Origin: Roseburia hominis
GTDB lineage: Bacteria; Bacillota_I; Bacilli_A; RFN20; CAG-826
Assembly: GCA_963642055.1 (NCBI GenBank)
Contig: CAVIFQ010000003.1
Coordinates: 1,205 to 65,204, forward strand
Length of the DNA: 64,000 nt
Direction: 5' to 3'
The stretch's first letter is position 1. Each line of letters opens with the position of its first letter. The notes under the pieces are model-generated. The model was given only the letters and a program-made list of their open reading frames with translations. It was not told where the DNA came from and did no database searches. Below are positions 10,485 through 62,120 of this stretch, in pieces. The position numbers were made by a program, and so were the translations under genes.

Positions 10485-10520
10485 CAAAAAAACGGCCAAG
10501 AGGCCGTAATAATCTTTTTT
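10485..10520. terminator. bidirectional terminator (ends the tRNA operon on - and the AKR gene on +)
   Basis: A8-cggcc-aaga-ggccg-...T6; on the minus strand the hairpin is followed by the U-tract right after tRNA-Leu. Confidence 0.7.
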
Positions 10521-10605: not shown

Positions 10606-10664
10606 ATCTGGCTTTTGAAGAGAAACGCCTCCATGCGCCTACGCGCCGGAGGCGATTGCTTCGT

Positions 10665-10739
10665 TGGTCTCCCGTGACGGGCTCGAACCGTCGACCCCTT
10701 GATTAAAAGTCAAGTGCTCTACCACTGAGCTAACGGGAG
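10665..10739 (-). tRNA. tRNA-Lys(TTT)
   Basis: D-arm GCTC-AGTGGTA-GAGC, anticodon arm CTTGA-CTTTTAA-TCAAG, T-arm GACGG-TTCGAGC-CCGTC, encoded CCA; position 1 is C pairing G72, which is unusual. Confidence 0.8.
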
Positions 10740-10743
10740 ATTA

Positions 10744-10818
10744 TGGCTGGGATGGCTGGGATCGGACCAGCGAATGACAGAGTCAAAGTCTGTTGCCTTA
10801 CCACTTGGCTACATCCCA
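10744..10818 (-). tRNA. tRNA-Gln(TTG)
   Basis: U1-A72 acceptor TGGGATG/CATCCCA as in bacterial tRNA-Gln, anticodon arm ACAGA-CTTTGAC-TCTGT, encoded CCA. Confidence 0.8.
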
Positions 10819-10822
10819 AGAA

Positions 10823-10906
10823 TGGTGGGCGAAGATGGATTTGAACCACCGAACCCTGAGGAGCTGATTTACAGTCAGCCGCGTTTGGCCACTTCGCTAT
10901 TCACCC
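10823..10906 (-). tRNA. tRNA-Tyr(GTA)
   Basis: Acceptor GGGTGAA/TTCGCCC, anticodon arm GCTGA-CTGTAAA-TCAGC, long variable arm (class II), encoded CCA. Confidence 0.8.
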
Positions 10907-10939
10907 ACTGATTTCGTCACCGCACGTTAAGGCTAATGA

Positions 10940-11014
10940 TGGTGGATGCTACAGGTTTCGAACCTGTGACCCCCGCCTTGTAAGGGCGATGCTCTCCCGC
11001 TGAGCTAAGCATCC
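10940..11014 (-). tRNA. tRNA-Val(TAC)
   Basis: Acceptor GGATGCT/AGCATCC, D-arm GCTC-AGCGGGA-GAGC, anticodon loop CTTACAA, T-arm ACAGG-TTCGAAA-CCTGT, encoded CCA. Confidence 0.85.
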
Positions 11015-18694: not shown

Positions 18695-18779
18695 TGGTGC
18701 GGGAAACCAGAATCGAACTGGCATGAGTTGCCTCATACGCCCCTCAAACGTACGCGTCTACCATTTCCGCCATTCCCGC
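18695..18779 (-). tRNA. tRNA-Leu(GAG)
   Basis: Acceptor GCGGGAA/TTCCCGC, anticodon arm TACGT-TTGAGGG-GCGTA, variable-arm hairpin ATGAG-GCAAC-CTCAT, T-arm CCAG-TTCGATT-CTGG, encoded CCA. Confidence 0.8.
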
Positions 18780-29907: not shown

Positions 29908-32367
29908 ATGGAAAAAAAGATCATCGTGGCCGAAAAAGAATACGATTCGCTTCTTCTTTCCATTAGGGAAAAAGATCCATCGGCTTCTTTCAAAATCATC
30001 CATCCGGGCGACTTTCTTTCCTTAAGCTCTTTTTCCTATAAATCCGACCCTTTGCCCACGCTTATCGTGGAATTTGGGTATAGCTACAAGCAAGCGAAGA
30101 AATGCGCTGACCTCCTTAGGACAGGCAATGTGAGCGAAAACGCTAGATTATCATCTATCTTTGAACGCTTGAAGGAGCTGGGTCTAATTTCCGTTGACCC
30201 GTATGGGATTATCGAGCTAAACAAGGCTGAAGTATGCTTTTTGGAAATGAAAGACGAGGAGGAACTTCATCTCCTCGCGAAAATAAATAATATCCCTTAT
30301 CGCGATATCACACTCGCTGATCTCGGACTAGAAAAATGCAACGACGAGATGGTTGCTGCGCCCCCGATTTATATATTCAAAAACAAATTCGAGCAGTTCT
30401 TTTACGTCTATAGCGATATTCGCCGGCGGATGATTGACGGAGAAAAAGCCGACGATATCGTCATCCATATCGCCGACACCGCCGATTTGTTCTACTGCGA
30501 ATTGTGCTCATCCTTATTCAAGGTGCCTTCTTTGCTGAAAATGGATATTCCTTTTTTGAGCGAAGTTTCCGTCAAAAGGAAAGTCGGCGAGATTTATTCT
30601 GAGAAATCATTTGACTGCTTTTCCGAGGAAGAGATGAAAAACGAGGCCCTGAAAGCCTTATCGGAACTCATATCTTTCTACCGTCTAAACGAGATTCCTT
30701 TCGATAGGGGTTATGCTTCGCTCCTTGAGATGCTTTCTTCTTTATCGACGAGCGAGAGTAAAAGTCCTGTGGGTGTCATTCTCACCAACAAATACGTCAT
30801 CGAGCCTCATAAGCATGTTTACGTGACTGATTTCGTTTCCGGGTCTTTCTACGAAGTTAAGGAAGATAATAACATCCTCGATGATGCCTCACTTTGTGAA
30901 ATCGGCGCAAATCCCAGCTATGTTCTCACTTCTCTCGACCGCGAGAAGAAACTCAACTATTTACGTTATAACGATATTGTCTTTTTATCTTATGCCGAAG
31001 AGCATCTAAACGATTCAATCTATCCTTCGCAGTTCATGGCTGAGCTTCCGACTTACAAAGGCAAAGCCGTCAAGATGAGCGCCAGGAACGAGGAAGGGGT
31101 TTATACTAAAAAAACGCGCGACCTCCTCTTTTCAAAAGAGATGGATGACGCTTTTTGTCGGAAGACAATCGGGGAATATCGTTCCTACGATCATTCTTAC
31201 AAGACAATCGAAGGATATGTGTCTCCTTTCACAAGTGGCCACTACTCGGTGACGAATCTCGAGAAATACATCAAGTGCCCATTCGCGTATCTATATTCTT
31301 CGCTCACCCCTACCGCGATTTCCTCTTTTCACTATATGGATCTTGGTACCCTCATTCACAAGGTGATGGAAGGGATCTACGATGATGATTTCTCTTTTGA
31401 GAAAGCCTTTGAGGAAGGGGAAAGAGAATATGAAGAGGCGATGCTCAAGCGCGGGCAAACGATGGGCAACGTTCAGAAAGCCTACCTTGAGGTTGTGCGC
31501 CCGCACTTGGAGAGAGTCGTCGGCGAACTCCGCGCTTGGAAAGAATATTGCGATATATATGATCAAAAAAGCGAACAAAGAATCGAATGGAATCTATGCG
31601 ATGGCGATAAGAAATACCATTTCGTTGGCTACATTGACAAACTCGTTGTTTTTGGTAGGGATAAACCGGAATTCTATTATGTGATAGATTACAAAACGGG
31701 CAGTGAATCTTTTGTTCCTGAAACCGTCTTTTTAGGTTCTTCGACGCAGCTTCCTCTTTATCTATATGCCTTGGAGAATAACGAAGAAGAAAAAGAAAAA
31801 ATGGTCTCTGGGGCCCGTTTCGCGGGATTCGGAATTCAGCAAATGTATGCCTCATCCCTTAAAAAAGCCTATTACGATAAAGGCGTTCTTTCCGAAAAGA
31901 CCTTTTATAAAAACAGCGCTTTCTCTGGCGCGAGCTTAACCTCGGACGAGGATAGTTTCTGGTCTTTATCCGATCGGACGGCCTATAAGGAAAATAAAGG
32001 GAGTCTAGTATGCACAGGGGATGGGTATTTTCTCCGTAGCCCCCAAAGCTTTGTTTCTATGAGCGAAGGAACGGTCCTCAAGAACGCCGATAAAAAAGGC
32101 TATAAGGCATATACGCTCGCTGAACTTATCGAAGAAGCAAAAGAGAGCACAATCGAGACAATCAAAAAAATCGAGAACGCCGATTTTCCGATTGCTCCAG
32201 CGAATAGGAACGATCTTTTAAAACCTGCCTCGAACAAAAACTCCGATCTTACCTGCGCTTTCTGCGCCTACGCCGATATTTGTTACCATGATTCCTATAA
32301 AGACCCAAAGGATTTCTCTCGCATCATCGCGCAGCATTTCCGGAAAGGAGAGGAAGATGATCGATGA
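29908..32367 (+). CDS. addB: AddB/RexB-like helicase-nuclease subunit B (no N-terminal Walker A; C-terminal PD-(D/E)xK nuclease with Fe-S cysteines)
   Basis: 819 aa; C-terminal RecB-family nuclease motifs (YIDKLVVF...VIDYKTG) followed by four Cys (CTGDG...CAFCAYADIC); the N-terminal half has no GxGKT. Confidence 0.7.
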   Translation: MEKKIIVAEKEYDSLLLSIREKDPSASFKIIHPGDFLSLSSFSYKSDPLPTLIVEFGYSYKQAKKCADLLRTGNVSENARLSSIFERLKELGLISVDPYGIIELNKAEVCFLEMKDEEELHLLAKINNIPYRDITLADLGLEKCNDEMVAAPPIYIFKNKFEQFFYVYSDIRRRMIDGEKADDIVIHIADTADLFYCELCSSLFKVPSLLKMDIPFLSEVSVKRKVGEIYSEKSFDCFSEEEMKNEALKALSELISFYRLNEIPFDRGYASLLEMLSSLSTSESKSPVGVILTNKYVIEPHKHVYVTDFVSGSFYEVKEDNNILDDASLCEIGANPSYVLTSLDREKKLNYLRYNDIVFLSYAEEHLNDSIYPSQFMAELPTYKGKAVKMSARNEEGVYTKKTRDLLFSKEMDDAFCRKTIGEYRSYDHSYKTIEGYVSPFTSGHYSVTNLEKYIKCPFAYLYSSLTPTAISSFHYMDLGTLIHKVMEGIYDDDFSFEKAFEEGEREYEEAMLKRGQTMGNVQKAYLEVVRPHLERVVGELRAWKEYCDIYDQKSEQRIEWNLCDGDKKYHFVGYIDKLVVFGRDKPEFYYVIDYKTGSESFVPETVFLGSSTQLPLYLYALENNEEEKEKMVSGARFAGFGIQQMYASSLKKAYYDKGVLSEKTFYKNSAFSGASLTSDEDSFWSLSDRTAYKENKGSLVCTGDGYFLRSPQSFVSMSEGTVLKNADKKGYKAYTLAELIEEAKESTIETIKKIENADFPIAPANRNDLLKPASNKNSDLTCAFCAYADICYHDSYKDPKDFSRIIAQHFRKGEEDDR

Positions 32368-35300
32368 ATCCAAATTCAACAGAGAGCAATTGGATGCCAT
32401 CTTAGCCTCAAGCCAAGAGGACATTCTTATTTCCGCCGGGGCTGGAAGCGGAAAAACGAACACCCTTTCTGAGCGCGTGAGCGAAATGCTATTAAAAGGC
32501 GAAATCAATCCAAGCGAGCTCCTCGTTCTTACTTTTACCAACAATGCCGCTCATGAAATGAAGGAGCGCATCATCGCAAAATTCCCGAAAGAGGAAAAAG
32601 AGAAAGCCAGAGAGCTTCTCTCTAGTCACATTCAGACCTTTGACTCTTTGTATCAATATCTTGTCTCTTCGTACGCGAACGAGCTTGGTTTGTCGTCGAA
32701 TTTGAACGTGCTAGATAAAACGATTGCGAAAACAAAGCAAAGCGAAATAATCGACTCTTTGTTTTCCTCATATTACGAAAATCCCAGCAAAACCGCATCC
32801 TTATTGTCGATAATCAAGAAATTCGATATGAAAGACGATTCTCAGACAAAGAAAATCGTCTTAAGTTTGTGGACAAGCATCGATAAACTCAGCCGTCCTG
32901 AGAAGAACCTCGTTTTGAATGATTACGATAGGCATTATTTGAGCGATGAGTTCATCGATTCCAAGTATCATGAACTTGTTTCTTCTTCTAAAAGCGAATT
33001 TGAAGAGGTGATATACGAGGCTGCTTTCGCCGATTATTTCTATCCGCTTTATTCCAAAGAAGGATATTCGGTGGAGAAGGCCAAGGAAGTTTTCTCAAGC
33101 CGTGGCTTCTGGGAGACCCCTTACGCGAATTTCGCTTTCGCGGAGAATAGTATCGTCGATCCGATGTACCGTAAAATCCTTGAGCTCCTTTCTCTTGGCG
33201 ATGAGGAATTCGTCGCGAAGGCTAATTCGTTCAAAGAGGATAACGAAGCCTTTTTCAAGAAGGTAATTCCCGGCTTAGAAAAGGACAGCAAAACCCAATT
33301 AGAGGCGCCTTGGAAGATAATGAAGGCCGCTTTCGGAACAAAATCAGCCGCTCTTGCGCCAATAAGAGGCCTCTTAGATAAAAAGAGCGAGCGTGAAAAA
33401 GTCCTTTATTACCGCGACGATATCATTTTCCTGCTCCAGATGATCAAAGAGGCCGATGCCATTTTCACTGATTTCAAGAAAGCGACGAATTCTTTCACCT
33501 TCTCCGATTATGCTGAATTCGCTCTCGCGCTCATGAACGATGAAAAATACGAAAAATGCGCGAAAGAGGTCAGAAACCGTTTCTCTTATATCATGGTTGA
33601 CGAATACCAGGATACCAACCCGAAGCAAGAAGCTCTCTTGTCGAGTCTTCTCAAAGAGCGCGATGATGGGAGCAGGGCGCATCTATTCGCGGTAGGGGAT
33701 GCGAAACAAAGCATCTACCTTTTTAACGGCAGTGAGGTTGCTCTTTTCCGCAATAGGCAGCGTCAATATTCTTCGGGAGCAGGGCATCGCGTGATCAACA
33801 TGAACCGCAATTACCGAAGCGGGAAAAAATTGCTGCAGGAAATCAATTACATTTGCTCATATTACATGAGGCTCGATCACGGCTTCATCGATTACAAAAA
33901 CGACCCCTCAGAGCACCTTCTTTATGACGATAAAGTGAACTTATACGGCAAGGAATACGATAATTTCTGCATTTCGCGCATCTTCACGCCGAATGATGCG
34001 ATCAAGAAAGAAAAGCGCTCGGCTCTCGATAGCAGAACAAGAGAGGCAAACATTATCGTCGAAGACATAAAAAAGAAAATCAGCGAAGGGTATTTGGTCT
34101 ATGATCGCTCCGAAAAAGCCGTCCGCCCGTGCCGCTATAATGACTTCGCCATTCTTTCGAGCGTCAAAAGCTCCTTCAGGATGTATGAGCAGATATTCAC
34201 GCAAAACGGGATAAAGCTGAATAAAAAGGTTTCCGATAACCTGCGTGAGACCGATTCCATTATTTTGATCGAATCGTTGTTACGCATCTACGCCTATTTC
34301 AATGGTGACGAAAGTCAAGATATCAGGCATTTATTCGCTTCGATCGCTCGTAGCTACGCCTTTGAATACACCGACACGAAGTTATACGAACTGCTCCACT
34401 ACGAAAACGGTGGAGACCCATATTTGAAAATCAAGTCCGATCCTTTATGGGAAGAGCTTGAGCGTTTCTCCAGAAAAAATGCCCTCACTCCTTCTAGCGA
34501 CGTTTTCCTTGCTTTGATTGATGAGTTCCATGTTATCGACCATTTGCCGAAAATCGGGGAAGTGGCGAACGTCATCGCCAAAATTGACTCTCTTTACCAG
34601 ATGATTCTCGAGAACGAGACGATGGGGAACGGCATCAAAGAATTCTTGAGCATGCTTTCGGAAATGGATAAGCATTCGCTTGAATGCGAGAACGAAACCC
34701 TCACCAATTGCGATGATGCGGTCGATATGATGACGATTCATGCCTCAAAAGGGCTTGAACGCAAAATCGTTTATTTGCCGGTTTCTCTCAATTCCATGGG
34801 GCGAGGCGATATGCGTAACGCCTCTATCCTCTCTTTTTCGATGGATAAAGGCATCGTTTTGCCGTATTTGCGTTTTGAGCCCACTAAACCGTATTCGCCG
34901 CTTAATGAATATTCGGTTTTAACCGATACCGTGTTGACGCGAAAGAAGGCCAATTACGAGAATGACCCGCTTATTGATGACCATACGCGCTTATTTTATG
35001 TGGCTTTGACGCGAGCCGAGAATCAGATCGTCATCGTCGGCGATAATCAGAAAGGCAAAGAGAATCTATACGCGATGCTCAATTGTTGCCCTCATTTCAT
35101 TAGACTGAATGATCGCTACTTCACCAAAAAAATTGATGAAGGAATCATCAAAAAGAAAGATTACGAGGCTTTTCTCGCAAATGGGGAAAACTGCAAATCA
35201 GTTTTTTTGCCTTTCTCCGCTTTGCCTTCTTTTTCCGCCTTCCGCGCATATAAGAAGATGGGGGAGGAGCATTGCTTACAGGCCCCATTAAGGGTACAGA

Positions 35301-36370
35301 ACGAGATTCTTGATCTCTTCTGCCTCTCTTTATATGAAGATTATCTAAAAAAGATAAAAGAGATAACTGACCTCGACGAACTTGCCAGCATTTATGCCGC
35401 TTTGTTTTTACCAATGGTTAAAGAAGCAGCAAATATCGCATCTTTTGCCTCTCTTGTCGCTTATCTGAATAGCGCGAATGAAGAGAAAAAAGAAGATATC
35501 GAAATCGATTATGAAGACGATGAAGATGATGATGGCGAAGGCGATGAGGGGGAGGAGAAAGCAATCTCTTTCTCGCCTAACTTGATGAAGTCGACGAACA
35601 AAGAATGGCTCGTAAGAAATACCATCGCCCACCTGTTAGCGAACGACTACGAGTTTTTCTTCGTTAAGAAGAGCAAGAAGATGACAGAAGAGGACATGAA
35701 GTTGTTTTTAAGCAAACACTTTTTGCCAGCTCTAGCTCATTACTTCGATGATACTTGGTTTATCGCCTATACATCTTATGAGAACGAAGGCTATGAAGAT
35801 CGCGTCTTTTTCGCTGAAGAACATGTGGATGCTGAACAAACAAAAGTCGCGGAAATCCCTGAATTTAAGGAACCTCGCGTCGATGAAAGGGAATTCGTTT
35901 TAATGCCCACCCAGCATAAACGCGCGAGCAAGAAAATCACTCTCATCGATAGCGATGCTCCCTCTTCCTTCGTTTTGGATAGAGGCAGCGAGCTTCACCG
36001 CCATCTTGAGATGGTGGACATTGCTTCAGGCGATGTTTCTTTTATTTCCGATTACGATGAAAGAAGGCTCATCAAGAGGGTGCTCGATTTGCCGATTATG
36101 CGTCTAGCGAAGGAATCGATCATCCACACCGAATATCAATTCTATGATCCAAACGCCCATTCAACGGGGTCAATTGATTTATTGTTCATACATGATGAGG
36201 AATACTACATTGTCGATTATAAAACGAGCCGCATAAATGACCCGGCCTACGTTGAGCAGCTATCGGTGTATACCGACAATATCTCGCGCATTTTCAACGT
36301 TGAAAAAGCAAAAATCCATTTATACCTCGTCTCGATTGTCAAAGGTGAGCAAAAAGAGATAACGCTTTAA
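32357..36370 (+). CDS. addA: ATP-dependent helicase/nuclease subunit A (UvrD/PcrA-like helicase plus RecB nuclease)
   Basis: Start at ATG 32357 (RBS ggaaaggagagg; overlaps addB by 11 nt); Walker A GAGSGKT, VDEYQDTN, C-terminal nuclease IVDYKTS; acidic insert EDDEDDDGEGDEGEE. Confidence 0.85.
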   Translation: MIDESKFNREQLDAILASSQEDILISAGAGSGKTNTLSERVSEMLLKGEINPSELLVLTFTNNAAHEMKERIIAKFPKEEKEKARELLSSHIQTFDSLYQYLVSSYANELGLSSNLNVLDKTIAKTKQSEIIDSLFSSYYENPSKTASLLSIIKKFDMKDDSQTKKIVLSLWTSIDKLSRPEKNLVLNDYDRHYLSDEFIDSKYHELVSSSKSEFEEVIYEAAFADYFYPLYSKEGYSVEKAKEVFSSRGFWETPYANFAFAENSIVDPMYRKILELLSLGDEEFVAKANSFKEDNEAFFKKVIPGLEKDSKTQLEAPWKIMKAAFGTKSAALAPIRGLLDKKSEREKVLYYRDDIIFLLQMIKEADAIFTDFKKATNSFTFSDYAEFALALMNDEKYEKCAKEVRNRFSYIMVDEYQDTNPKQEALLSSLLKERDDGSRAHLFAVGDAKQSIYLFNGSEVALFRNRQRQYSSGAGHRVINMNRNYRSGKKLLQEINYICSYYMRLDHGFIDYKNDPSEHLLYDDKVNLYGKEYDNFCISRIFTPNDAIKKEKRSALDSRTREANIIVEDIKKKISEGYLVYDRSEKAVRPCRYNDFAILSSVKSSFRMYEQIFTQNGIKLNKKVSDNLRETDSIILIESLLRIYAYFNGDESQDIRHLFASIARSYAFEYTDTKLYELLHYENGGDPYLKIKSDPLWEELERFSRKNALTPSSDVFLALIDEFHVIDHLPKIGEVANVIAKIDSLYQMILENETMGNGIKEFLSMLSEMDKHSLECENETLTNCDDAVDMMTIHASKGLERKIVYLPVSLNSMGRGDMRNASILSFSMDKGIVLPYLRFEPTKPYSPLNEYSVLTDTVLTRKKANYENDPLIDDHTRLFYVALTRAENQIVIVGDNQKGKENLYAMLNCCPHFIRLNDRYFTKKIDEGIIKKKDYEAFLANGENCKSVFLPFSALPSFSAFRAYKKMGEEHCLQAPLRVQNEILDLFCLSLYEDYLKKIKEITDLDELASIYAALFLPMVKEAANIASFASLVAYLNSANEEKKEDIEIDYEDDEDDDGEGDEGEEKAISFSPNLMKSTNKEWLVRNTIAHLLANDYEFFFVKKSKKMTEEDMKLFLSKHFLPALAHYFDDTWFIAYTSYENEGYEDRVFFAEEHVDAEQTKVAEIPEFKEPRVDEREFVLMPTQHKRASKKITLIDSDAPSSFVLDRGSELHRHLEMVDIASGDVSFISDYDERRLIKRVLDLPIMRLAKESIIHTEYQFYDPNAHSTGSIDLLFIHDEEYYIVDYKTSRINDPAYVEQLSVYTDNISRIFNVEKAKIHLYLVSIVKGEQKEITL

Positions 36371-38624: not shown

Positions 38625-40292
38625 TTAGTTCTTCGAAAGGACGAGCGGGATGATCATCGGGCTTCTTTCGGTCTTGCGGTAAATGTATTTGGATACCTCA
38701 TTCTTGACGGCACTCTTGATTTCGCCGATGGAGGCCCTGCGCTCAATCGCGGCTTTATAAGCTTCATCAGCGTGAAGCTGGGTGTGACGCATCAAGTGGG
38801 TGTTCTCGCCGCTTGCGAATCCGCGGGCGTAGACAATCGGCGGGAGAGTGGCTTCGCCCTTCTCGTTCATCGATAGCAAAATGACGACTAGACCATCGCT
38901 TTTTAAGATTTCGCGGTCATGGAGGACGCTGCTTGATAAGCCATCCAAATCATTGCCATCGATATAGACATCCTCCGCTGGCACATGGCCACCTCTAGAG
39001 ACAACGCCATCTTTAAGCTGCAAGACATCGCCATTCCCGCAGACGAAGATATTGCTTTCTTTCATGCCGAGCTCTTTGGCGACTTCCCCGTGCAATTTGA
39101 GCATGCGGTATTCGCCATGCGCCGGCATGAAGTATTTAGGATTGGCGAGTTTGAGCATCAAGCGGAGTTCTTGTTTGGACGGGTGGCCCGAGCTATGGAG
39201 AGAGAAAGCGATGCTATTGGTTTTAACGTCCGCCCCTTGCTTGACGAGATTATTGACCAAGCGGTCGATGAGGGCGCCGTTCCCTGGGATCGGGTTGGAA
39301 GAAAAGACGATAGTATCGCCTTGACTTATGTGCACGTTTTTGTGATCGCCATTCGCGATGCGGGAAAGAGCCGCCATGCTCTCGCCTTGGGAGCCAGTGC
39401 AAAGAATGCAGATCTCGTTGCTCTTGTAGTTACGGATATTCTCATCGCTTATGATGGATGAATCCGGGATTTTGATATAGCCATAATCGCGGGCGATCCC
39501 GACAACCGTCTCCATGCTCCTTCCGAGAATGCAGATTTTGCGGTTATGCTCGACGGCGACCTCAACTACCTGCTGAATACGGTTGATGTTGCTAGAGAAG
39601 GTCGAGACGATGATTCTTCCAGGGGCTTTGTCGAATATTTCCTCGACGCCGCTTCTTACGTGGCGCTCGCTGGGGGTATAGCCCTCTATTTCGGCGTTTG
39701 TGGAATCGCTTAAAAGGAGACTCACGCCCTCATCGCCGAATTTCGCGACTTTGCTGAGCTCGAAATTCGGGCCGACTGGGGTCAAATCGATTTTGAAGTC
39801 GCCGGTATCGAGGATTCTTCCTTCTGGCGTATCGATGCAGATGCCGAAAGAATCAGGGATGGAGTGAGTGACGCGGAAGAAGGATACCTTGAAGCTATCA
39901 TCGACGCGGATGACGGTATCGCTGTCATACTCAACGATTTTGACTTGGTCTTTGATGCGCGCATCCTCAAGCTTGTGGCGAATGAGGGCAGCGGCTAGAC
40001 GCGGAGCGTAAATCACGGGGATATTGACGCTTCTCACCAAAAAAGGAATGCCGCCGATGTGGTCTTCGTGGCCGTGCGTGATGAAGAGTGCTTTGATTTT
40101 GCCGCGATTATTCCGCAAATACGTGTAATCTGGGATAACGTAGTCAACGCCAGGCAAATTGGCTTCTGGAAAACGGACGCCGGCATCGATCATGATGATT
40201 GAGCGCTCGCTTTCAAAGCAATAGGTGTTCTTGCCGACCTCACCGAGGCCGCCGAGAGCAAAAATCTGTATAGGTGTGCTTGATTTAGACAT
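38625..40292 (-). CDS. rnj: ribonuclease J
   Basis: 555 aa; beta-lactamase HxHxDH motif (ITHGHEDHIGG), beta-CASP and C-terminal domains; 2 nt upstream of maf. Confidence 0.9.
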   Translation of the reverse strand: MSKSSTPIQIFALGGLGEVGKNTYCFESERSIIMIDAGVRFPEANLPGVDYVIPDYTYLRNNRGKIKALFITHGHEDHIGGIPFLVRSVNIPVIYAPRLAAALIRHKLEDARIKDQVKIVEYDSDTVIRVDDSFKVSFFRVTHSIPDSFGICIDTPEGRILDTGDFKIDLTPVGPNFELSKVAKFGDEGVSLLLSDSTNAEIEGYTPSERHVRSGVEEIFDKAPGRIIVSTFSSNINRIQQVVEVAVEHNRKICILGRSMETVVGIARDYGYIKIPDSSIISDENIRNYKSNEICILCTGSQGESMAALSRIANGDHKNVHISQGDTIVFSSNPIPGNGALIDRLVNNLVKQGADVKTNSIAFSLHSSGHPSKQELRLMLKLANPKYFMPAHGEYRMLKLHGEVAKELGMKESNIFVCGNGDVLQLKDGVVSRGGHVPAEDVYIDGNDLDGLSSSVLHDREILKSDGLVVILLSMNEKGEATLPPIVYARGFASGENTHLMRHTQLHADEAYKAAIERRASIGEIKSAVKNEVSKYIYRKTERSPMIIPLVLSKN

Positions 40293-48234: not shown

Positions 48235-51200
48235 ATGGGAAAAGAACTTTCATCTCTATCGAATTTAGACATCGGAATCGAGATTTCCCCGACTTGGAAT
48301 TACGCCTCTTACCAAGCCGATTTCTTCGCGAAGAGAGAAAACGGAAGCACGCGCAGCACTTCCTTTTCCTTTATAAAAAGAGTTACGGCTACCAATAAAG
48401 GCGGATCTTCCCTCCGCGATTGCGCCCTGCGCTTTTCTATTTTCCCGGCTTATTGCTCCATCGATCCCATCAAAATCGATTTCCTTGAGCAAGGCAAAAA
48501 GACGGAGATAGACCATTTTGTCGGCGAAATCGAATTTGCTTCTCTATACGCTTTATCTACCTCTCTTCCTGGCGAACTCATCGTCGATTTGGTGAATGGG
48601 AATGGTGATATCATCGCGAGCAAGAAAGCCACTTTCTCTTTTGATAACATCTCAAGCGCCCTATATTCAAGCGGAGTCCGTGAACTCCTTGCTTCTTACG
48701 TTACTCCAGACGATAAGAGCCTACAGCCGATAAAGGAAGAAGCCGGTTTGCTTTTGAAAGATAAATACGACTCCTCTTTCGCCGGCTATTCATACCGCGA
48801 TCCGAATAAGGTCATTGAAGAGATTGACGCTCTTTATCTAGCCCTTTCCAATGAGAAAATCTCTTTATCAGCCAGTTCGTCCTCGCCGATAATGTGCCTT
48901 AAAAATATCGACCTTCCTTGGCAAATATTGGACAAAAAAGAGGCGAATTGCGTGGATTTTGCGATTTTGTTCGCTTCTTTAATCGAAATGGCCGCGCTTC
49001 GTCCGCTTATCGTTTTCACAGGTGAGAAGGCTTTAGTAGGCGTCTATCTGGACGAGTCGATTTCCTCTTCTCCGCTTCTAGATAACGACACCGAATTATT
49101 GAATCTTGCCTCCAAAGGCTTCAACCGTCTTATCCTCATCGACCCCGTTTATGCCTCAAAAGAGAAGAATGCGGATTTCTCCTACGCCGTGAATGAAGGC
49201 TATCTTGCGCTTCAGAACAACCATTCCTTTTTATATGGCGTGGATATTTTCGCTTCCAGGAAAGAGCATATCCTGCCCTTGCCAACGCCGATAAAGGCGG
49301 AAGATACCTCGAAAATCGAATTCCCGGATTTTTCCGCGAAGAAAGATTATTCGATGCCGCGCGTTGAAGTCGAAAACCGCCGTTATCTTGATTCCGAGGC
49401 TCCTTCCAAAAAGAACAAATTCGATTATTGGGAGGAAAAGCTGCTCGACCTTTCAATGAACAACCGCCTTATCAATATGCGGTTCTCGAATCTTTTCCCG
49501 CAGGTTCTGAATCTTGATTCCGAGGCGCTTCTTTCAACTCTATCGAAAACAAATAAAGTTTCGGCCATATCCTCGATCGATGTTTCACCGATCAAAGAGG
49601 AACGCAATACGCCGGCGAATTTCTCCAATGCCGATAAATCGCGCTTCAATGAATATTTGGGTAAGAAGACTTTGTGCTTTGTTTCCAAAGAAGGGTCGCC
49701 TGATGATTATTTGAAGAGCCTTGCCCGTAAAGCGAATACCGCGATTGAGGAAAGCGGGTGCAATCCGCTTTTCTTAACGATCGGTTTGATCAAATGGTTC
49801 GATAATGAGAAAGCGGCAGCGCACGGGAAAGGCGCGCTTTATTCTCCGCTCTTCCTTTTGCCAGTGAAGATACCAAGAAGAAAGACCGGATCATCCTTCA
49901 GTTTGGAATACAACATTGATGATCTCGGCTTGAATACGACCATTTTTGAGTATTTCCGCGAGAACTTCGATTTGGATTTTTCGCCAGTCTTCGGCGAATT
50001 TGCCAAAACTAGCAAAAATGAGCCTGACATCCGTTTGATCTTCAATTTCATCCGTGAGCGAATTGCTTCCTTCAAAGGATGGGCCGTGCTTGAAGAGCCA
50101 TGCTCCGTGTCTTTATTCTCTTTTGCCCGCTTCGTGATGTGGAACGATATAAAGACGCACCGCGAGAAGATGATGCAGAATCCTCTTATCTCTTCTTTCG
50201 TCGATGGCTTCAATGAACTTGAAACCCAAAACGCTGATTCGGATAAGAAAACCGGCGATGAGGCCCCTTCTTCTTCTTTAGCCATTCCTCTCCCCGCCGA
50301 TTCAAGCCAAATCGATGCGATAAGAGAAAGCGCGAATGGCGTTTCCTTCATATTGGACGGTCCGCCAGGGACAGGGAAAAGCCAAACGATCGCGAATATG
50401 ATCACCAATGCCCTATACCACGGCAAGAGCGTTCTTTTCGTCGCTGAAAAAGGAGTGGCTCTCGAAGTCGTCAAAAAGAGATTGGACGCTTTAGGAATCG
50501 GCAAATTCTGTTTGACTATTCCCTCTATCAATACCGCAAAGAGCGAAGTCCTTTCCTCTTTAGGGGAAATGCTTGAGCTTGGGCAAGTCGAAAGCCCACA
50601 GGATTTTGAGACGCAGTCATCGTCAGTCGATGAGAAAAGAAACAAACTCAACGATGACTTATACGCGCTTCATCAAAAAGGAGCTTATGTTTTCTCTCCG
50701 TACGAAGCCATCATCAATTATCTGAGACTTGCTGAATATAAAGGGGCATATGAGACAAGCAAGGATTACGCTGCCTCTTTGACGACGACCGACTTTGAAT
50801 CGGCTCAGAAGGAACTCACGAATCTCAGCATGCAAGCTTCCGCTCTCGGCGGATATTACGGCAATTCCTTTTTGCCATTCTCTTCGCGCGAATATTCAAT
50901 CGAAGCCCGTGACTCCTTATTCGAGAAAATCCCTTCTTTGATCGCTGACCTCAAAGCCTTCCATATCGCCGTCTATAACTGTTTTTTCAAAGATAAAGGT
51001 TTAGCGGAAACTAGAGACAACGTTGACCTATATTATGAAATCGTCAAGCTTTTGCAGGGTAATTCGCTCCTTTTCCTCGATTATCTGAGTGATGAGACTT
51101 TCGTGCAAAAGAAGCAGGAAATGCAAGGATATTTGCTTTTGCTCGGCCAAAAATTCAAAATCAAGGAAGAGCTCTCCGAATTGTGGGAAGAGGGATTCTT

Positions 51201-54099
51201 CAAGGAAAGCGGGGAGACGCTTCTTGCCAAAAAAAGAGCAACCAAGCGGGCCAGCTTATTCGAGAAGCATCGCTTATTGATCTCGCTTAAAAAGAGCTTG
51301 AAGCCACTTGCGAAAGACAAGCGAGCCTTGAAAAAAGGAACGCTGGAGAAATCGCTCGAGAAGCTGATTGAATATCGTCACCTTGAAGAAGACGCCGAGC
51401 ATTTTGATCCCTACGTGAGATACGTTTTCTCAAAATCCCACATCAGCTCCTCTCTTGATATCGAAAACGAAATTGCTAGATATGACCGCACCTTGAAAAT
51501 CATCGATATCAAAAACGGTTTCCGTTTAGAGAAACAAGCAACGATGACTGATATTGACGATGCGATTCGTCATCTTTCCGTGAACCGGGAATATCTTTTC
51601 GCTAAAGCCAGAATGACGTTCATCTCGCAATATGATGCTCTTAAAGAGAAACTTGGCGAATTGAAAGAAAAATTTGGCTTTGATCTCTCAAATTACGAGG
51701 ACTGCTTTGATTTCTATCTCCATGTCTCTTCTTCTTTGACCGATGCTTATTCCAGCAAAGGCAAGCTTTCGGAATGGACGAACCTCTTGTTCACTTTAGA
51801 TCGTGTTTCGAAACTGGCGCCGGAAGAATTAGTCGATTCGTACCGCAACGGCAAAATCAAAGAAGACGCCCTTCTTTCATCCTACATCTGCTCCCTTTCC
51901 TATCGGATACTTTCCGATTCGTTGAGCGAAAAAGGCTTATCGACCATAAACGCGAAAGACACCAAAGAGGAAATCGCTTCTTATAAGAAAGCCATCGATG
52001 ATTTTTCAAAGACGAGCATCGTCGAGACCGTCTCTAGAATCACGAGCCTATATCCTTCTTCGAGCGCAAGCGCGCCTTCCACGACGATTTATCAGTTCAG
52101 AAAACTCATCAAAAACGGTGGACGCGGCGTCTCGCTCCGTCAGATTTTCGATCATTTCGGAACGCTTGTGCGGACTCTCTGCCCTTGCTTTTTGATGTCG
52201 CCAGCCTCCGTTGCCCAATATCTTGATATCGATTCCTACAATTTCGACTTGGTCATTTTCGATGAGGCCAGCCAAATCCCCACAAGCGAAGCCGTCGGAG
52301 CGATCGCTCGAGGCAAAACCACGATCATCGCCGGTGACCAAGAGCAGATGCCGCCATCCAATTTCTTCATGGCGAGCGGTGGTCATTCTTCTGATCCGTC
52401 ATTACTATCCAGCATGACGGAGGATTTGGAGAGTTTGCTCGATGATGCCATCGCTTTAGGACTTCCGCGGAAGCGTCTTACCTGGCATTACCGTAGCCGT
52501 CATGAGTCGCTCATCGCTTTCTCGAACAATAAATTCTACGCGAATAGCCTTATTACTTTCCCTTCGCCCGCCAACGAGAAGGCCTCAGTATCGAGCGTTT
52601 ATGTAGGCGGCAAATACGAAATGAAGCGGGGCGTCAATAGGAAAGAGGCGACTGCGATCGTCGAAGAGATAATAAGAAGATCGGCTGATCCGGTTTTATC
52701 CAACTATTCGATTGGCGTTGTCACTTTCAATGAAGCTCAGCAAAACCTCATCGAGGATCTTTTGGATAAGAAACTGCCATATGGAGAAGGGCACAAACTC
52801 GGTGGAGAGGACATTTTCGTGAAGAATCTCGAGAATGTGCAGGGTGATGAGCGCGATGTCATTCTTTTCTCGACTACCTATGCACCGAAAGAAGACGGCA
52901 AACTCTCGCTCAACTTCGGGCCTTTAAGTCGCGAAAAAGGCGAGAGAAGACTTAATGTTGCAATCACTAGGGCTAGAGAAGAGATGATTGTTTTCACCTC
53001 GATGAAGCCAACCGATATCGATGCTGAAAAAGCGAAAAACGCCGGAGCTTCTTATTTACGGAGCTTCTTGCTCTTCGCGGAGACTGGCCTTTCATCCCTA
53101 CCGAATAACATCGCTAGCCGTATCTCTTTGCCGTCAGTAAGCGTTGCCGATTTCATCGCGAAAGATTTGAAGAAACTCGGTTATCGCGCGGAAACAAATA
53201 TTGGCTCCTCTTCCTTTAAAGTCGATGTCGCCGTTGGCGATAACGGCGATAAAAACCATTATTCGCTAGGCGTTTTGGTGGACGGCGATTCCTATTGCTC
53301 TTCCCCAACGTGCCGCGACCGCAATATCGTTGAGCCGGGCATTTTAGCTAATCTAGGCTGGAACTTGTATTGGGTTTGGAGCGTTGAATATCTCGACCAT
53401 CCGCAAGAAGTCATCAAGAACATCGTGAACGCCATCAATAATTCCGACGGCAATCGGAAAATTGCTAGAGAAGGCGATTCTTTATTTGATGACCCTATCA
53501 CTTTCGCGAAGAAAGAAGTCGTTTCTCATCCTTATGCCATACCTTATAGTAGAAGAAAACTTTCTCCGATGATTCCTGAAGATTTCTCGAATAAGGCCAC
53601 ATCAGCGAGAATGCTTGGGGCTTTCATTGCCGACGTGCTTCACGATGAGACGCCGATTTCGGAGAAACTTCTCAATGAACGCATCAAAGACGCTTATGGT
53701 TTAAGCCGCATCGGATCAAACGTCCGCGATGTCATCAATATGGCTCTCAACATAAATGAGCCGAATAAAGAGATCAGAGGCGGAACCATCTTTTATTGGG
53801 ACAGAGAAAGGAAGATGGAAGAGTATCGTTATTACAGGTTGAATAACGAGGAGAATCAACGCGAAATCACCGATATCTCCTTTATAGAGCTCGGGAATGC
53901 GATTGCTGATATCTTGCTAGAACAAGGAAAAATGACGACAATCGATCTCTGCAAACAAGTGAATTCCTTGTTCGGGTTCTCCACCTTGAAAGAAAAATCC
54001 CGGAAACATCTAGAACTCGCATTGAAAGCCAACGCCAATCAAAGGCTCGGCATAACGATTGAAGACGGCTACGCCTCAATAAAAAACAAAGGACAATAA
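48235..54099 (+). CDS. giant SF1 (Upf1/DNA2-like) helicase with N-terminal DUF4011-like region, Vsr/DUF559-like endonuclease fold and DUF3320-like tail (Hhe-type single-gene defence architecture)
   Basis: Continuous 1954-aa ORF; Walker A GPPGTGKSQTI (about aa 706), Walker B VIFDEASQIP (about aa 1341), GDQEQMPP, motif VI LNVAITRAREEMIVFTS, then LGVLVDGDSY...GWNLYWVWSVEY (Vsr/DUF559-like) and a C-terminal RIKDAYGLSRIGSNV tail. Confidence 0.75.
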   Translation: MGKELSSLSNLDIGIEISPTWNYASYQADFFAKRENGSTRSTSFSFIKRVTATNKGGSSLRDCALRFSIFPAYCSIDPIKIDFLEQGKKTEIDHFVGEIEFASLYALSTSLPGELIVDLVNGNGDIIASKKATFSFDNISSALYSSGVRELLASYVTPDDKSLQPIKEEAGLLLKDKYDSSFAGYSYRDPNKVIEEIDALYLALSNEKISLSASSSSPIMCLKNIDLPWQILDKKEANCVDFAILFASLIEMAALRPLIVFTGEKALVGVYLDESISSSPLLDNDTELLNLASKGFNRLILIDPVYASKEKNADFSYAVNEGYLALQNNHSFLYGVDIFASRKEHILPLPTPIKAEDTSKIEFPDFSAKKDYSMPRVEVENRRYLDSEAPSKKNKFDYWEEKLLDLSMNNRLINMRFSNLFPQVLNLDSEALLSTLSKTNKVSAISSIDVSPIKEERNTPANFSNADKSRFNEYLGKKTLCFVSKEGSPDDYLKSLARKANTAIEESGCNPLFLTIGLIKWFDNEKAAAHGKGALYSPLFLLPVKIPRRKTGSSFSLEYNIDDLGLNTTIFEYFRENFDLDFSPVFGEFAKTSKNEPDIRLIFNFIRERIASFKGWAVLEEPCSVSLFSFARFVMWNDIKTHREKMMQNPLISSFVDGFNELETQNADSDKKTGDEAPSSSLAIPLPADSSQIDAIRESANGVSFILDGPPGTGKSQTIANMITNALYHGKSVLFVAEKGVALEVVKKRLDALGIGKFCLTIPSINTAKSEVLSSLGEMLELGQVESPQDFETQSSSVDEKRNKLNDDLYALHQKGAYVFSPYEAIINYLRLAEYKGAYETSKDYAASLTTTDFESAQKELTNLSMQASALGGYYGNSFLPFSSREYSIEARDSLFEKIPSLIADLKAFHIAVYNCFFKDKGLAETRDNVDLYYEIVKLLQGNSLLFLDYLSDETFVQKKQEMQGYLLLLGQKFKIKEELSELWEEGFFKESGETLLAKKRATKRASLFEKHRLLISLKKSLKPLAKDKRALKKGTLEKSLEKLIEYRHLEEDAEHFDPYVRYVFSKSHISSSLDIENEIARYDRTLKIIDIKNGFRLEKQATMTDIDDAIRHLSVNREYLFAKARMTFISQYDALKEKLGELKEKFGFDLSNYEDCFDFYLHVSSSLTDAYSSKGKLSEWTNLLFTLDRVSKLAPEELVDSYRNGKIKEDALLSSYICSLSYRILSDSLSEKGLSTINAKDTKEEIASYKKAIDDFSKTSIVETVSRITSLYPSSSASAPSTTIYQFRKLIKNGGRGVSLRQIFDHFGTLVRTLCPCFLMSPASVAQYLDIDSYNFDLVIFDEASQIPTSEAVGAIARGKTTIIAGDQEQMPPSNFFMASGGHSSDPSLLSSMTEDLESLLDDAIALGLPRKRLTWHYRSRHESLIAFSNNKFYANSLITFPSPANEKASVSSVYVGGKYEMKRGVNRKEATAIVEEIIRRSADPVLSNYSIGVVTFNEAQQNLIEDLLDKKLPYGEGHKLGGEDIFVKNLENVQGDERDVILFSTTYAPKEDGKLSLNFGPLSREKGERRLNVAITRAREEMIVFTSMKPTDIDAEKAKNAGASYLRSFLLFAETGLSSLPNNIASRISLPSVSVADFIAKDLKKLGYRAETNIGSSSFKVDVAVGDNGDKNHYSLGVLVDGDSYCSSPTCRDRNIVEPGILANLGWNLYWVWSVEYLDHPQEVIKNIVNAINNSDGNRKIAREGDSLFDDPITFAKKEVVSHPYAIPYSRRKLSPMIPEDFSNKATSARMLGAFIADVLHDETPISEKLLNERIKDAYGLSRIGSNVRDVINMALNINEPNKEIRGGTIFYWDRERKMEEYRYYRLNNEENQREITDISFIELGNAIADILLEQGKMTTIDLCKQVNSLFGFSTLKEKSRKHLELALKANANQRLGITIEDGYASIKNKGQ

Positions 54100-54101
54100 A
54101 T

Positions 54102-54608
54102 ATGAGCAACAACTGGTTTGAAATACGTTCGAAATCCAATCCTAAGCAAATTCTAAGCCACAGCGATAATGATGAATTCCTCTTCGTCTCTCATTTTGTC
54201 GCTTCTCCTTTCGGGGAAGAGGAAAAAGAGGAAAATGAATGGATAAGTTCCTCAAAAAGCGAACTATTTGCTTACTTCAAAGAAATCGTTTTAAGGGAAA
54301 TGCTATTTGAGGATTATGTGAATGGCGATGCTGTGCCAGAGCTTCAGAAGCATGATTTCTCTACTATCCTTGGCCTATTGATTGAAGGCGCGGAAAAAGG
54401 CGAGCTCGATGATTGGCATGATGGGCTGAAGACGCTTTTGGAGATTCGTGACTGGAGCGAAAAAGACGACGCGGATTACGCTGAGCTAGAAAAAATATTG
54501 CGCAAACACGACCTTAATCTCCATGTTGAACATTTCTCTTCTTTGGAAGAAGCGAAAAGGTGCGGTGGAGCAAAAAGAGCGTTACTTGATGAGTTTTTGG
54601 GCCGCTAA
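54102..54608 (+). CDS. hypothetical acidic protein coupled to the giant helicase gene
   Basis: 168 aa; starts 3 nt after the helicase stop with its own RBS aaagga; pI clearly acidic; no family recognised. Confidence 0.5.
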   Translation: MSNNWFEIRSKSNPKQILSHSDNDEFLFVSHFVASPFGEEEKEENEWISSSKSELFAYFKEIVLREMLFEDYVNGDAVPELQKHDFSTILGLLIEGAEKGELDDWHDGLKTLLEIRDWSEKDDADYAELEKILRKHDLNLHVEHFSSLEEAKRCGGAKRALLDEFLGR

Positions 54609-55688
54609 AGACCTCAAGCTGTCATCGCTTAATAAGAGCATTAAATCATTGGAAGAAGCAATTTTCTTCTCTTTTAAGCAAAAATGGAGAGCGTTGATAA
54701 GAGTGTCGGTCTCATTCGCGCATTTATGATAATCTTCATCGCTTGAGCCGTTATATTCTTCATCGATCAAAATAAGTAGGGCTCTTCTAAGGAGGGAGAG
54801 AATGCTTTTCTCGATCCAATACGATGTCTTCGTTTTCTTAAAAGAGGCAAAGTAGGGCACAAAGCGTAGATAGGAGAATAACCCATCAAAAGGCAAGCGC
54901 CAGATATCGACGAAAGAGTAGGAATAAGAGCCATCTCTCATGGTTTTGGCAAATTCGTAAGCGTCAGCTTCAATGATGTTTATTTTCGATTTGAATTCAA
55001 ATTGAGGAAGGATGAATTTGTTAAATAATTCAATGCAGTTTTTATCTTTTTCGATAATGGTTACCGATTCAACTTCTTTCTTAAGCGATACGCTGAATGG
55101 GTAATAGCCAAGCCCTAAACCAAACGTGATGACTTTTCCTTTTGCTTCTATGATTGAGGCTTTCATCGTGTTGATTTCATGAGGGGTTATGCTCATCCAC
55201 GTTTTCTTATTTTGGATTACCTCGATGTAGCGAAATCTCCTCAAAAAGAACCCCAATTGATTGATTTCTTTGTAATAGTCGTTTTCTTTAACGATTATTT
55301 CATCACTCAGCATTCCTTCAAAAGGAGCGTAAGAGGAAGAGGTTAATTTCCAGCTGCCTAAAGTCGAGGAAGGGAAACGGATACTTTTCCAGTAAGGATC
55401 ATTCTCGTACTCCTTCGGGTCAAGGATACTGATTTTATTGCTCGATTCATCAATGAAATCATAATCGCCTAAATTCATTAAATATTTCTTCGATTCAGAC
55501 AAGAATGAAGCCTTTGGATTACCATACTTTTTGTAAGCTTTTTCGCAACTTGAGAACATCGTCTCGTCGCGTGCTTTTAGATAGATATTGAAAGCATCGG
55601 CGTTTGCCTCATTGCGGTTCATTGTCTCTAGCAATTTATTGATTGCGTTTTCTATTTCGTGGCTATGCGTTATTTTCATCCGCCTCAT
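54582..55688 (-). CDS. spermidine-synthase-like (PABS fold) class I methyltransferase-fold protein with an N-terminal extension
   Basis: 368 aa; KVITFGLGLGYYP...SVTIIEKD...IIEADAYEF...SFVDIWRLP mirrors the SpeE motifs GGGDGG / VEID / DG / D-x-x-D-P; convergent 27-nt overlap with the preceding gene. Confidence 0.5.
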   Translation of the reverse strand: MRRMKITHSHEIENAINKLLETMNRNEANADAFNIYLKARDETMFSSCEKAYKKYGNPKASFLSESKKYLMNLGDYDFIDESSNKISILDPKEYENDPYWKSIRFPSSTLGSWKLTSSSYAPFEGMLSDEIIVKENDYYKEINQLGFFLRRFRYIEVIQNKKTWMSITPHEINTMKASIIEAKGKVITFGLGLGYYPFSVSLKKEVESVTIIEKDKNCIELFNKFILPQFEFKSKINIIEADAYEFAKTMRDGSYSYSFVDIWRLPFDGLFSYLRFVPYFASFKKTKTSYWIEKSILSLLRRALLILIDEEYNGSSDEDYHKCANETDTLINALHFCLKEKKIASSNDLMLLLSDDSLRSLAAQKLIK

Positions 55689-55738
55689 TTTAGAAAGTCA
55701 TGCGCGCCAGTGCACCTTTTTTCGCTTATCATTATCGC

Positions 55739-56150
55739 CATGAGCAGAGATTCGAAGATTATTCTGACGACAATGACCATGGTCTATCGCGATGATGGTA
55801 GCTTTTTGGTCGAAGAGAGAAAGAAAAACGATTGGCCTGGCATCAATTTTCCCGGAGGGCATGTTGAAGACGATGAATCGATTGTCGATTCAGCCAAAAG
55901 AGAAATAAAAGAAGAGACGGGCTTAAATATTTACGATTTGGAAGAAGTTGGCACTTTCGAGTGGAATATCCCTTCCGAGCACGTCCGTCATCTTTGCGTC
56001 TTATATCGCACAAACCATTTCGATGGCGAACTTATTTCAAGCAAAGAAGGCTCGGTATTTTGGATCAAAAAAGATGATTTGTCTCACTACAAGCTGAGCA
56101 CCGACTTCGACAAAGTCCTTGATAAAGCCTCACTGGGGCTTCCTTTTTGA
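55739..56150 (+). CDS. NUDIX hydrolase
   Basis: Nudix box GGHVEDDESIVDSAKREIKEETGL; start uncertain (ATG 55739 or 55772). Confidence 0.75.
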
Positions 56151-61067: not shown

Positions 61068-61598
61068 TTAGAGGCGTTTGAAAAGCAGCTGCTGAGGTGT
61101 TTTAGAGAACTCGAAATCCTCTAAATCGACTCTTTTGTAGCCGTTTTTGCGGAGATATTCGATTCCTCGCTCATTAGACGGGTCTAAGGAAGAAAGGAAC
61201 AAAAAGCGGGGAAATTCCCTTTCGATATAGGAAAGCATCTCGCGTCCGACTTTCTTATGGCGGTGGAGCGGATCGACGGATAGATAAGAGAGCACCATAA
61301 CGTCTTCGCTCATCTTCCAATCGGTTTTGCCGATAACTTCCATGAGTTTTCCGCCATTGTGGCTAAGAGGATAAAAATAGGAACTTACGTCTTTTTCGAC
61401 GATCGCTAGAGCAATAACCACTCTTCTTTCGATAGCGAGGTAGCACTTTCCAGTTTCGATAAACGACTTGAGCTGCTCTTGGCTAAAGGAGGGGATGGGA
61501 AAAATAATGCCTTCGTATTTGACACTTCCCTCGACTCTTCGCGTGAGTTTGCCTAGGCTTTCTAAATCATCTTGCCTGGCTTTTCGATAAAGAATCAT
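61068..61598 (-). CDS. GNAT-family N-acetyltransferase
   Basis: 176 aa; GNAT-like core (motif A region HRHKKVGREML). Confidence 0.6.
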   Translation of the reverse strand: MILYRKARQDDLESLGKLTRRVEGSVKYEGIIFPIPSFSQEQLKSFIETGKCYLAIERRVVIALAIVEKDVSSYFYPLSHNGGKLMEVIGKTDWKMSEDVMVLSYLSVDPLHRHKKVGREMLSYIEREFPRFLFLSSLDPSNERGIEYLRKNGYKRVDLEDFEFSKTPQQLLFKRL

Positions 61599-61628
61599 GC
61601 GAATACCATAACACTTTTAGGTATGATT

Positions 61629-62120
61629 ATGCCTATGAAAGAGCGTTCTGAGAAAACGATTTCGCGCGTGATGAGCCGCATCAAAGGCAAGAATACCGGC
61701 ATTGAGCTTGCCTTAAGGAAAGAACTCTATGCTTTAGGAGTTCGATACCGCCATAACACGAGCAAAGTGTACGGACATCCGGATATATCGATCCAAAAAT
61801 ACAAAATCGCCGTCTTCTGCGACAGCGAATTTTGGCATGGGTATAATTTTGAAGAGAACAAGAAGAAACTCCATAAGCACCTTGATTACTGGATTCCGAA
61901 AATCGAGCGCAATATCGCGCGCGACAAAGAAGTGAATGAGGAACTAGAAAAAGAAGGATATACCGTCATCCGCTTCTGGGGGAGCGAGATAAACAAAGAC
62001 CCCAAAAAGTGCGCCGAAGCAGTAGTATTCGCCTTAAGAGAAAAAGGGTGGAGCGAAGCAAAAGAAAACCCGGCCTTATGGAAGCCGGGCGTGAGTCATA
62101 AAAAGAGAGACGAGGATTAG
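61629..62120 (+). CDS. vsr: very-short-patch-repair endonuclease (Vsr)
   Basis: MSRIKGKNTGIELALRKELYALGVRYRHN...HPDISIQKYKIAVFCDSEFWHG closely follows the Vsr consensus; start at ATG 61629 (AGGT 7 nt upstream). Confidence 0.8.
   Translation: MPMKERSEKTISRVMSRIKGKNTGIELALRKELYALGVRYRHNTSKVYGHPDISIQKYKIAVFCDSEFWHGYNFEENKKKLHKHLDYWIPKIERNIARDKEVNEELEKEGYTVIRFWGSEINKDPKKCAEAVVFALREKGWSEAKENPALWKPGVSHKKRDED

Follow-up and report, generated by a model that had tools for sequence, protein, structure and literature searches.

A lineage-restricted orphan ORF at the 3' end of a ProA/PDC-S37/Hhe-type helicase-nuclease gene

The window, which is the whole 64-kb stretch of DNA analyzed here, contains a gene for a giant helicase-nuclease and, just downstream on the same strand, an ORF of 168 aa. 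The protein encoded by this ORF is designated domain X, or simply X. The locus comprises the following features.

48235-54099, plus strand: gene for a 1954-aa helicase-nuclease with DUF4011, SF1 AAA_11/AAA_12, MTES_1575 endonuclease and DUF3320 domains (Pfam, PADLOC and NCBIfam)
54087-54092, plus strand: Shine-Dalgarno (SD)-like sequence AAAGGA, 9 nt 5' of the ATG of X and within the final codons of the helicase gene
54102-54608, plus strand: 168-aa acidic ORF with an ATG start, domain X (ORF list)
54582-55688, minus strand: convergent gene for a 368-aa SAM-methyltransferase/spermine synthase-like protein (PHROG 15480 "methyltransferase", E = 5e-10)
55659-56150, plus strand: NUDIX hydrolase gene (NCBIfam)

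The methyltransferase-like domain of the 368-aa protein is central. In a tblastn search, this central domain matched hypothetical proteins in 1611 plasmid records, mostly enterobacterial, and 1462 of these records are predicted to be conjugative. Phage genes with the annotation polyamine aminopropyltransferase or methyltransferase were matched as well.

Other features of the window are located further from X. A stand-alone Vsr-type endonuclease gene with a weak C-terminal MTES_1575/DUF559 match lies at 61572-62120 on the plus strand, and a GNAT acetyltransferase gene on the minus strand (61068-61598) overlaps its 5' end. Both are conserved in the syntenic block described below. At 29908-36370 on the plus strand, an 819-aa ORF is followed, with an overlap, by a gene for a 1360-aa UvrD/AAA_19 helicase; this pair may be AddAB/RexAB-like. 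An RNase J gene (38625-40292), a cluster of five tRNA genes (Leu-taa, Lys, Gln, Tyr and Val; 10520-11014) and a separate tRNA-Leu(gag) gene (18695-18779) are all on the minus strand.

The TAA stop codon of the helicase gene occupies 54097-54099 and is followed by the dinucleotide AT and then by the ATG of X at 54102, which leaves a gap of 2 nt. At the other end, X and the convergent 368-aa ORF overlap tail to tail by 27 nt. The earlier note on this DNA had pointed out the SD sequence of X and this overlap, and both are confirmed here. The overlap recurs in relatives, with a length of 9-36 nt. An SD-like purine run is seen at the matching place in the relatives most similar to the window (clade A, defined below), and their gaps between the helicase gene and X are 1-16 nt. 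At the helicase-X junction, no promoter-like or terminator-like site was better than shuffled expectation. No RNA element near the junction matched Rfam, and repeats were observed at chance level only. Because there is no promoter-like or terminator-like site between the two genes, it is plausible that X and the helicase are on one mRNA in this genome, and they may be translationally coupled.

Such an arrangement can be read as a partnership. The earlier note had proposed that X is a second component of a putative defence system, an immunity partner or a regulator. In a more explicit form of this proposal, the ProA/PDC-S37-type helicase-nuclease would have X as an accessory subunit specific to this lineage, and X would function as an inhibitor or immunity factor, as a sensor or as an adaptor. 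It would mask the MTES_1575 nuclease or a DNA-binding surface, possibly by DNA mimicry, and translational coupling would set a fixed ratio of the two proteins by which the nuclease is restrained. The 2-nt gap, the SD sequence within the 3' end of the helicase gene and the lack of a promoter-like or terminator-like site in between are in favor of this alternative, which is nevertheless considered unlikely on the evidence presented in the following paragraphs.

It should be considered whether X is a gene at all. X had no match in Pfam, PADLOC, NCBIfam or PHROGs, in agreement with the previous description of a protein without a recognisable domain. The absence of any database annotation or domain and the overlap with the convergent gene could be taken as signs that the frame behind the helicase gene is open by chance or was annotated in error. 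There is next to no chance that this is the case. X has 25 homologues at 30-97% identity, and a word-indexed search of 5.8e9 proteins gave 17 homologues at 52-97% identity. Fourteen alignment columns are invariant. The dN values are 0.2-0.5 and dS is saturated in most pairs, while dN/dS is 0.10 in the sole unsaturated close pair, indicating purifying selection. The start context is kept throughout clade A. The AlphaFold2 model, based on an 18-sequence alignment, is confident (pLDDT 87, pTM 0.84). The spurious-ORF explanation is effectively refuted by the conservation, by dN far below dS and by the AlphaFold2 model. X is a real gene, as had been argued from the overlap.

The family is small. 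When 1.84e9 cluster representatives were searched exhaustively with a profile, only nine clusters emerged, all of which are from one uncultured Firmicutes-like lineage, and X is carried by only six GTDB species genomes. When all 25 members were compared with Pfam at E<=10, no consistent family was found for the X domain, and no similarity of X to GNAT was seen in Pfam. Sequence-profile searches of PDB with X gave no match. X was not found in plasmid or phage records with tblastn, nor in the viral contigs of IMG/VR; a phage or plasmid origin and an anti-defence role were rejected because of the lack of matches in phage, plasmid and IMG/VR sequences. X is a genuine lineage-restricted orphan family with no relatives detectable by sequence or Foldseek.

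The 14 invariant columns among the 25 sequences are R9, P14, F37, E61, R65, N74, G75, D76, A77, L93, G100, H106, G108 and L138. Many of them fall in two motifs.

54306-54347, plus strand: the most conserved motif, F69-E-D-Y-V-N74-G75-D76-A77-V-P-x-L-Q82, in which N74, G75, D76 and A77 are invariant in the 25 sequences
54399-54425, plus strand: the second motif, G100-E-L-D-x-W-H106-x-G108, in which G100, H106 and G108 are invariant

The model of X is an alpha/beta structure with a three-stranded sheet and eight helices. From the N-terminus onward, it is predicted to contain a beta-hairpin (residues 25-33 and 42-50) and a long helix (52-73), followed by the conserved loop. Four helices, the third strand (141-145) and two C-terminal helices are predicted after the loop. 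The FEDYVNGDAVPxLQ loop shows the lowest AlphaFold2 confidence in X (pLDDT about 61) despite the strongest conservation; in the model, this is as expected for a putative functional loop. The invariant polar residues R9, E61, R65, N74-G75-D76 and H106 may form one site, and a set of R, E, R, N, D and H with glycines and prolines appears to fit a binding or catalytic site better than a charge mimic. The structure prediction and fold search suggested by the earlier note yielded this confident model and no Foldseek match in either PDB or BFVD. The GGAKRALLDEFL segment, which had been listed as a C-terminal feature, could not be maintained as a motif. It falls in the one region of the family where conservation is poor: the final ~20 residues vary, and many homologues lack them.

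The strong acidity of X is confirmed. X contains 38 D+E against 20 K+R (D+E 22.6%, net charge -18, pI 4.7), and among the 54 window ORFs that are 150 aa or longer, it has the highest acidic fraction. This would suit an accessory subunit that masks a DNA-binding surface. DNA-mimic proteins such as Ocr, ArdA and similar proteins are small and acidic. X of the window shares these two traits; its charge is about -0.11 per residue. Unlike in DNA mimics, the charge is not conserved in the X family: net values between -3 and -19 occur, and no more than 8 of the 38 acidic positions stay acidic in at least 80% of members. What is conserved is a mixture of polar residues (E, R, N, D and H) and not an acidic array. 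Foldseek found no match of X to solved DNA mimics, antitoxins or immunity proteins. The suggestion that X is DNA-mimic-like is weakened, as the charge is variable and no structural likeness was found by Foldseek. The least acidic members are those without a helicase nearby (net charge -3 and -8). This point is on the side of an accessory role, and it could hint that the acidity of X is tuned to the helicase.

The helicase itself resembles a recognizable group. It matches PADLOC PDC-S37 with E = 2.9e-295 over profile positions 7-1538 of 1550. Its score with NCBIfam NF058533 "anti-phage protein ProA" is 1411.3 bits, where the curated cut-off is 1500, and the match covers positions 6-1902 of the 1903 positions of this profile. 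The similarity to Hhe is lower: 617 bits in NCBIfam, where the cut-off is 2000, and E = 8e-130 in PADLOC. Judged by its profile matches, the helicase is a close relative of the single-gene ProA/PDC-S37/Hhe family and is positioned just under the ProA equivalog threshold. A limited literature search found no papers on ProA or PDC-S37, and the anti-phage role of ProA rests on the NCBIfam name. No further "Pro" models of NCBIfam matched the neighboring proteins.

The N-terminal residues 1-~390 of the helicase (48235-49410) are outside the PDC-S37 profile, the match to which begins at residue 393. They are within the NCBIfam ProA model (match from residue 41), show good conservation across orthologues and gave no Pfam match. 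Domain fission, in which X was split off a longer helicase, was rejected, since the helicase alone covers the whole ProA profile. It is also contradicted by the fact that X matches no plasmid helicase locus.

Relatives of the helicase are also found beyond the distribution of X. Full-length orthologues at 38-40% identity are present in two loci, L028 and L030, where no X homologue was detected in the fetched DNA with HMM at E<=10, and there is no co-directional ORF downstream of the helicase gene. Helicase relatives at about 30% identity are present in 486 plasmid records, with a helicase coverage of 71-85% among the 25 plasmid matches listed; X had no tblastn match in these 486 or in any other plasmid or phage record. 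At each of four annotated plasmid helicase loci that were inspected, the next gene is convergent or distant, and none is co-directional. Neither X nor the helicase was found in IMG/VR. The helicase family is overwhelmingly found without X and stands alone elsewhere. A component of the ProA/PDC-S37/Hhe systems would be expected to recur across the family, and L028, L030 and the plasmid loci are without X. That the helicase family is single-gene elsewhere, with distant relatives devoid of X, speaks against an accessory subunit.

The neighborhood of X was compared among relatives. Loci similar to the window, here called clade A (L001-L015 and L025-L027), are from MAGs of uncultured bacteria that carry labels such as "Bacillales bacterium UBA4691/UBA6865". 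Their order is always the helicase gene, a gap of 1-16 nt, X, an overlap, the 368-aa gene on the minus strand, and NUDIX. They are part of a longer block of YitT, a 495-aa gene on the minus strand, the helicase gene, X, the 368-aa gene on the minus strand, NUDIX, Sel1, two ABC genes, GNAT and Vsr. YitT, the 495-aa gene, the helicase gene, X, the 368-aa gene, NUDIX, Sel1 and ABC are kept in every clade-A locus that reaches far enough. The steadiest neighbors of X are the 368-aa gene and NUDIX, which are present in every locus reaching far enough. Because the whole block of ~10 genes is syntenic in clade A, the adjacency of the helicase gene and X carries little weight. It is no tighter than that of other genes in the block, in disagreement with a dedicated subunit.

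The helicase gene is vertically inherited in this conserved block, in lineages down to ~50% identity, and it is not in a mobile or variable island. No flanking repeats, integrase gene or tRNA gene adjoin it. Such stable chromosomal inheritance is unusual for a presumed defence gene, and it recalls the DUF4011 gene of P. aeruginosa, which is a core gene there (PMC10250203).

Direct adjacency of the helicase gene and X is seen in clade A only. In the sister helicase clade, one to four unrelated genes, differing by lineage, are inserted between them. The junctions are as follows, with genes on the opposite strand to X marked by (-).

L037: helicase / 159-aa ORF / X
L016: helicase / 295-aa ORF / GNAT::X
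L023: helicase / 295-aa ORF / CAT / GNAT::X
L035: helicase / ArsB(-) / 107-aa ORF / zinc-ribbon protein / DUF898(-) / X

The junction is thus an insertion spot in the sister lineages (L016, 5883-6770; L023, 5873-7450; L035, 7015-9905; L037, 9520-9999). The 295-aa insert ORF is Cys-rich and shows a weak match to DUF3795. The CAT insert is a gene of the chloramphenicol-acetyltransferase family, and the ArsB insert is an ArsB/CitMHS transporter gene. In three of these loci, a -10-like TATAGT or GATAAT is present 6-7 nt 5' of the ATG of X, and there is no SD sequence. The regions of these elements are listed below.

L016, ~6790-6823: -10-like element upstream of X
L023, ~7480-7513: -10-like element upstream of X
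L035, ~9970-10000: -10-like element upstream of X

A -10-like element without an SD sequence suggests that X in L016, L023 and L035 may be on a separate, possibly leaderless transcript.

In a third lineage (L019-L021; proteins P0024 and P0025), no DUF4011 helicase gene was found within 10 kb of X. No helicase gene was found in the available DNA of L022, where the contig ends 393 bp upstream of X. X is preceded by two tiny ORFs in this lineage. L019-L022 have kept, a few kb downstream of X, NUDIX and a gene orthologous to the 368-aa gene (42-43% identity, E = 1e-78 to 1e-79). In L020 and L021, a gene for a 936-aa nuclease-helicase with PLDc_2, DEAD/ResIII, Helicase_C and DUF3427 is located at 6017-8827 on the minus strand, ~1.2 kb upstream of X. 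It is on the opposite strand to X and is absent at the equivalent place in L019.

In total, the helicase gene is within about 3 kb upstream of X in five of six lineages. X co-occurs with the helicase in most, not all, loci. The trees of the helicase and X are largely congruent, the X tree being midpoint-rooted, and this fits vertical co-inheritance. The earlier note had proposed to look at co-occurrence of X with DUF4011 helicase genes. The answer is divided: the two are adjacent in clade A, but inserts separate them in the sister clade, L019-L021 are helicase-less within 10 kb, and no X was found with helicase relatives at 30-40% identity.

These observations can be weighed for the accessory subunit. 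The tight spacing throughout clade A and the presence of the helicase gene upstream of X in five of six lineages are expected for it. The sister-clade junction accepts one to four unrelated genes, including those on the opposite strand, and X occurs without a nearby helicase, neither of which is expected. In a toxin-antitoxin or immunity pair, adjacency would be kept wherever X occurs; adjacency was observed in clade A only, and inserts or helicase-less loci were observed elsewhere. The proposal of a second component, immunity partner or regulator therefore survives in its description of a real acidic gene abutting the helicase gene, and its functional part is unsupported as a specific claim. 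It was to be abandoned if homologues were never adjacent to helicase-nuclease genes; as they are adjacent in clade A, the idea has become less likely without being refuted.

A different partner is suggested by some relatives of X. Two distant members of the family, P0021 (252 aa) and P0023 (270 aa), contain an N-terminal mini-GNAT domain, PF14542 Acetyltransf_CG, fused to X (E = 1.8e-16 and 1.3e-11, respectively). In L037 and L038, a 159-aa ORF ends 1 nt before X. The best 50 Foldseek-PDB matches of the L037 ORF are all GNAT (E = 6e-4 to 1e-2, TM about 0.4); the query was a single-sequence model of low confidence (pLDDT 47). By sequence, this ORF has no Pfam or PDB match and no homologues. The matches are only suggestive of a GNAT fold for the 159-aa ORF of L037 and L038. 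The two X-associated GNAT modules are unrelated in sequence. Neither fusion with GNAT nor immediate adjacency to it is seen in the window, in the rest of clade A, in L035 or in L019-L022, and the GNAT gene nearest to X in the window is 6.5 kb off, at 61068-61598.

According to its description in Pfam, the PF14542 Acetyltransf_CG subfamily of GNAT has no obvious acceptor-substrate site. Two members of the X family are natural PF14542::X fusions and are in this respect like minimal GNAT Acetyltransf_CG proteins; unlike them, X of the window has neither a GNAT domain nor an adjacent GNAT gene. X could be a partner of GNAT, such as an antitoxin-like protein, a sensor or an acetylation target, in which case a single two-part module would occur fused in P0021 and P0023 and split in the gene pair. 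The stand-alone X of the window would either be left over from such a module or cooperate with a GNAT from another locus. The fusions in P0021 and P0023, the GNAT-like ORF 1 nt before X in L037 and L038, and the conserved GNAT gene a few genes downstream within the block are consistent with such a partnership. We regard it as quite improbable: the association is confined to 3 of about 9 lineages, the ORF of L037 was identified as GNAT-like from a low-confidence model, and the idea of a fused toxin-antitoxin is unsupported beyond analogy. The unrelated GNAT modules may have arrived independently, and the GNAT association could be an accident of an insertion hot spot which collects CAT, ArsB and similar cargo.

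The explanation that we prefer, with somewhat less than even confidence, is that X is an independent, vertically inherited orphan which is positioned at the 3' end of the helicase gene in clade A, has a polar site of its own and has become coupled to GNAT in some lineages. X would be a vertically inherited member of a block that consists of the helicase gene, X, the methyltransferase-like gene, NUDIX, Sel1 and two ABC transporter genes. In clade A, X is probably on the helicase mRNA, perhaps with translational coupling, and the helicase-X arrangement seems to result from synteny and does not have the look of a two-component system. X is most likely a self-contained ligand-binding, protein-binding or catalytic module, which would be built around the invariant R9, E61, R65, N74-G75-D76 and H106. 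In the sister lineages, X could supply the substrate or partner site that is absent from the minimal GNAT; any link of X to acetyl transfer is one that we infer. Several observations are against independence, among them the proximity of the helicase gene in five of six lineages and the low acidity of the helicase-less members. The spacing of 1-16 nt in clade A and the SD sequence in the helicase gene survive to about 52% protein identity, at which synonymous sites are saturated. Tight spacing kept over such a long divergence is also expected of a functional pair.

On the present evidence, tight spacing beside a defence-type gene says little about partnership when the neighborhood is syntenic across the clade. 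The DUF4011 helicase gene here is, by its behavior, a stably inherited gene of the chromosome rather than of a mobile island. X, as an orphan with a well-folded predicted structure, a polar motif and GNAT fusions, is a modest and tractable target for annotation. It is rather unlikely that X is a new lineage-specific modulator, such as an inhibitor, a DNA-surface mimic or a trigger adaptor, that makes a single-gene defence protein two-component in this clade. If it were true, the fold of X, which is fused to GNAT in sister lineages, would define a novel class of regulatory domains that bind partners. If X modulated the helicase-nuclease, the Hhe/PDC-S37/ProA class would have its first described accessory factor, and with it a handle on how these giant enzymes spare the host.

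A comparable arrangement is known from P. aeruginosa, where a variable hotspot is bordered by two core genes, one a giant DUF4011 gene and the other a small hypothetical gene (PMC10250203). The junction between the helicase gene and X is likewise variable in the sister lineages. The organisms are unrelated, and the likeness of X to the small gene in P. aeruginosa is one of arrangement.

ProA, PDC-S37 and Hhe are single-gene systems that combine DUF4011, an SF1 helicase and a Vsr/MTES nuclease, and the gene upstream of X is of that type. In contrast to these systems, here the small ORF X abuts the helicase gene in the same direction, and none of the ProA/PDC-S37/Hhe relatives examined has an X homologue or a small co-directional gene downstream. 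The locus is a variant of a known arrangement: a helicase-nuclease of the ProA/PDC-S37/Hhe type with a lineage-specific orphan ORF, with which it is probably co-transcribed.
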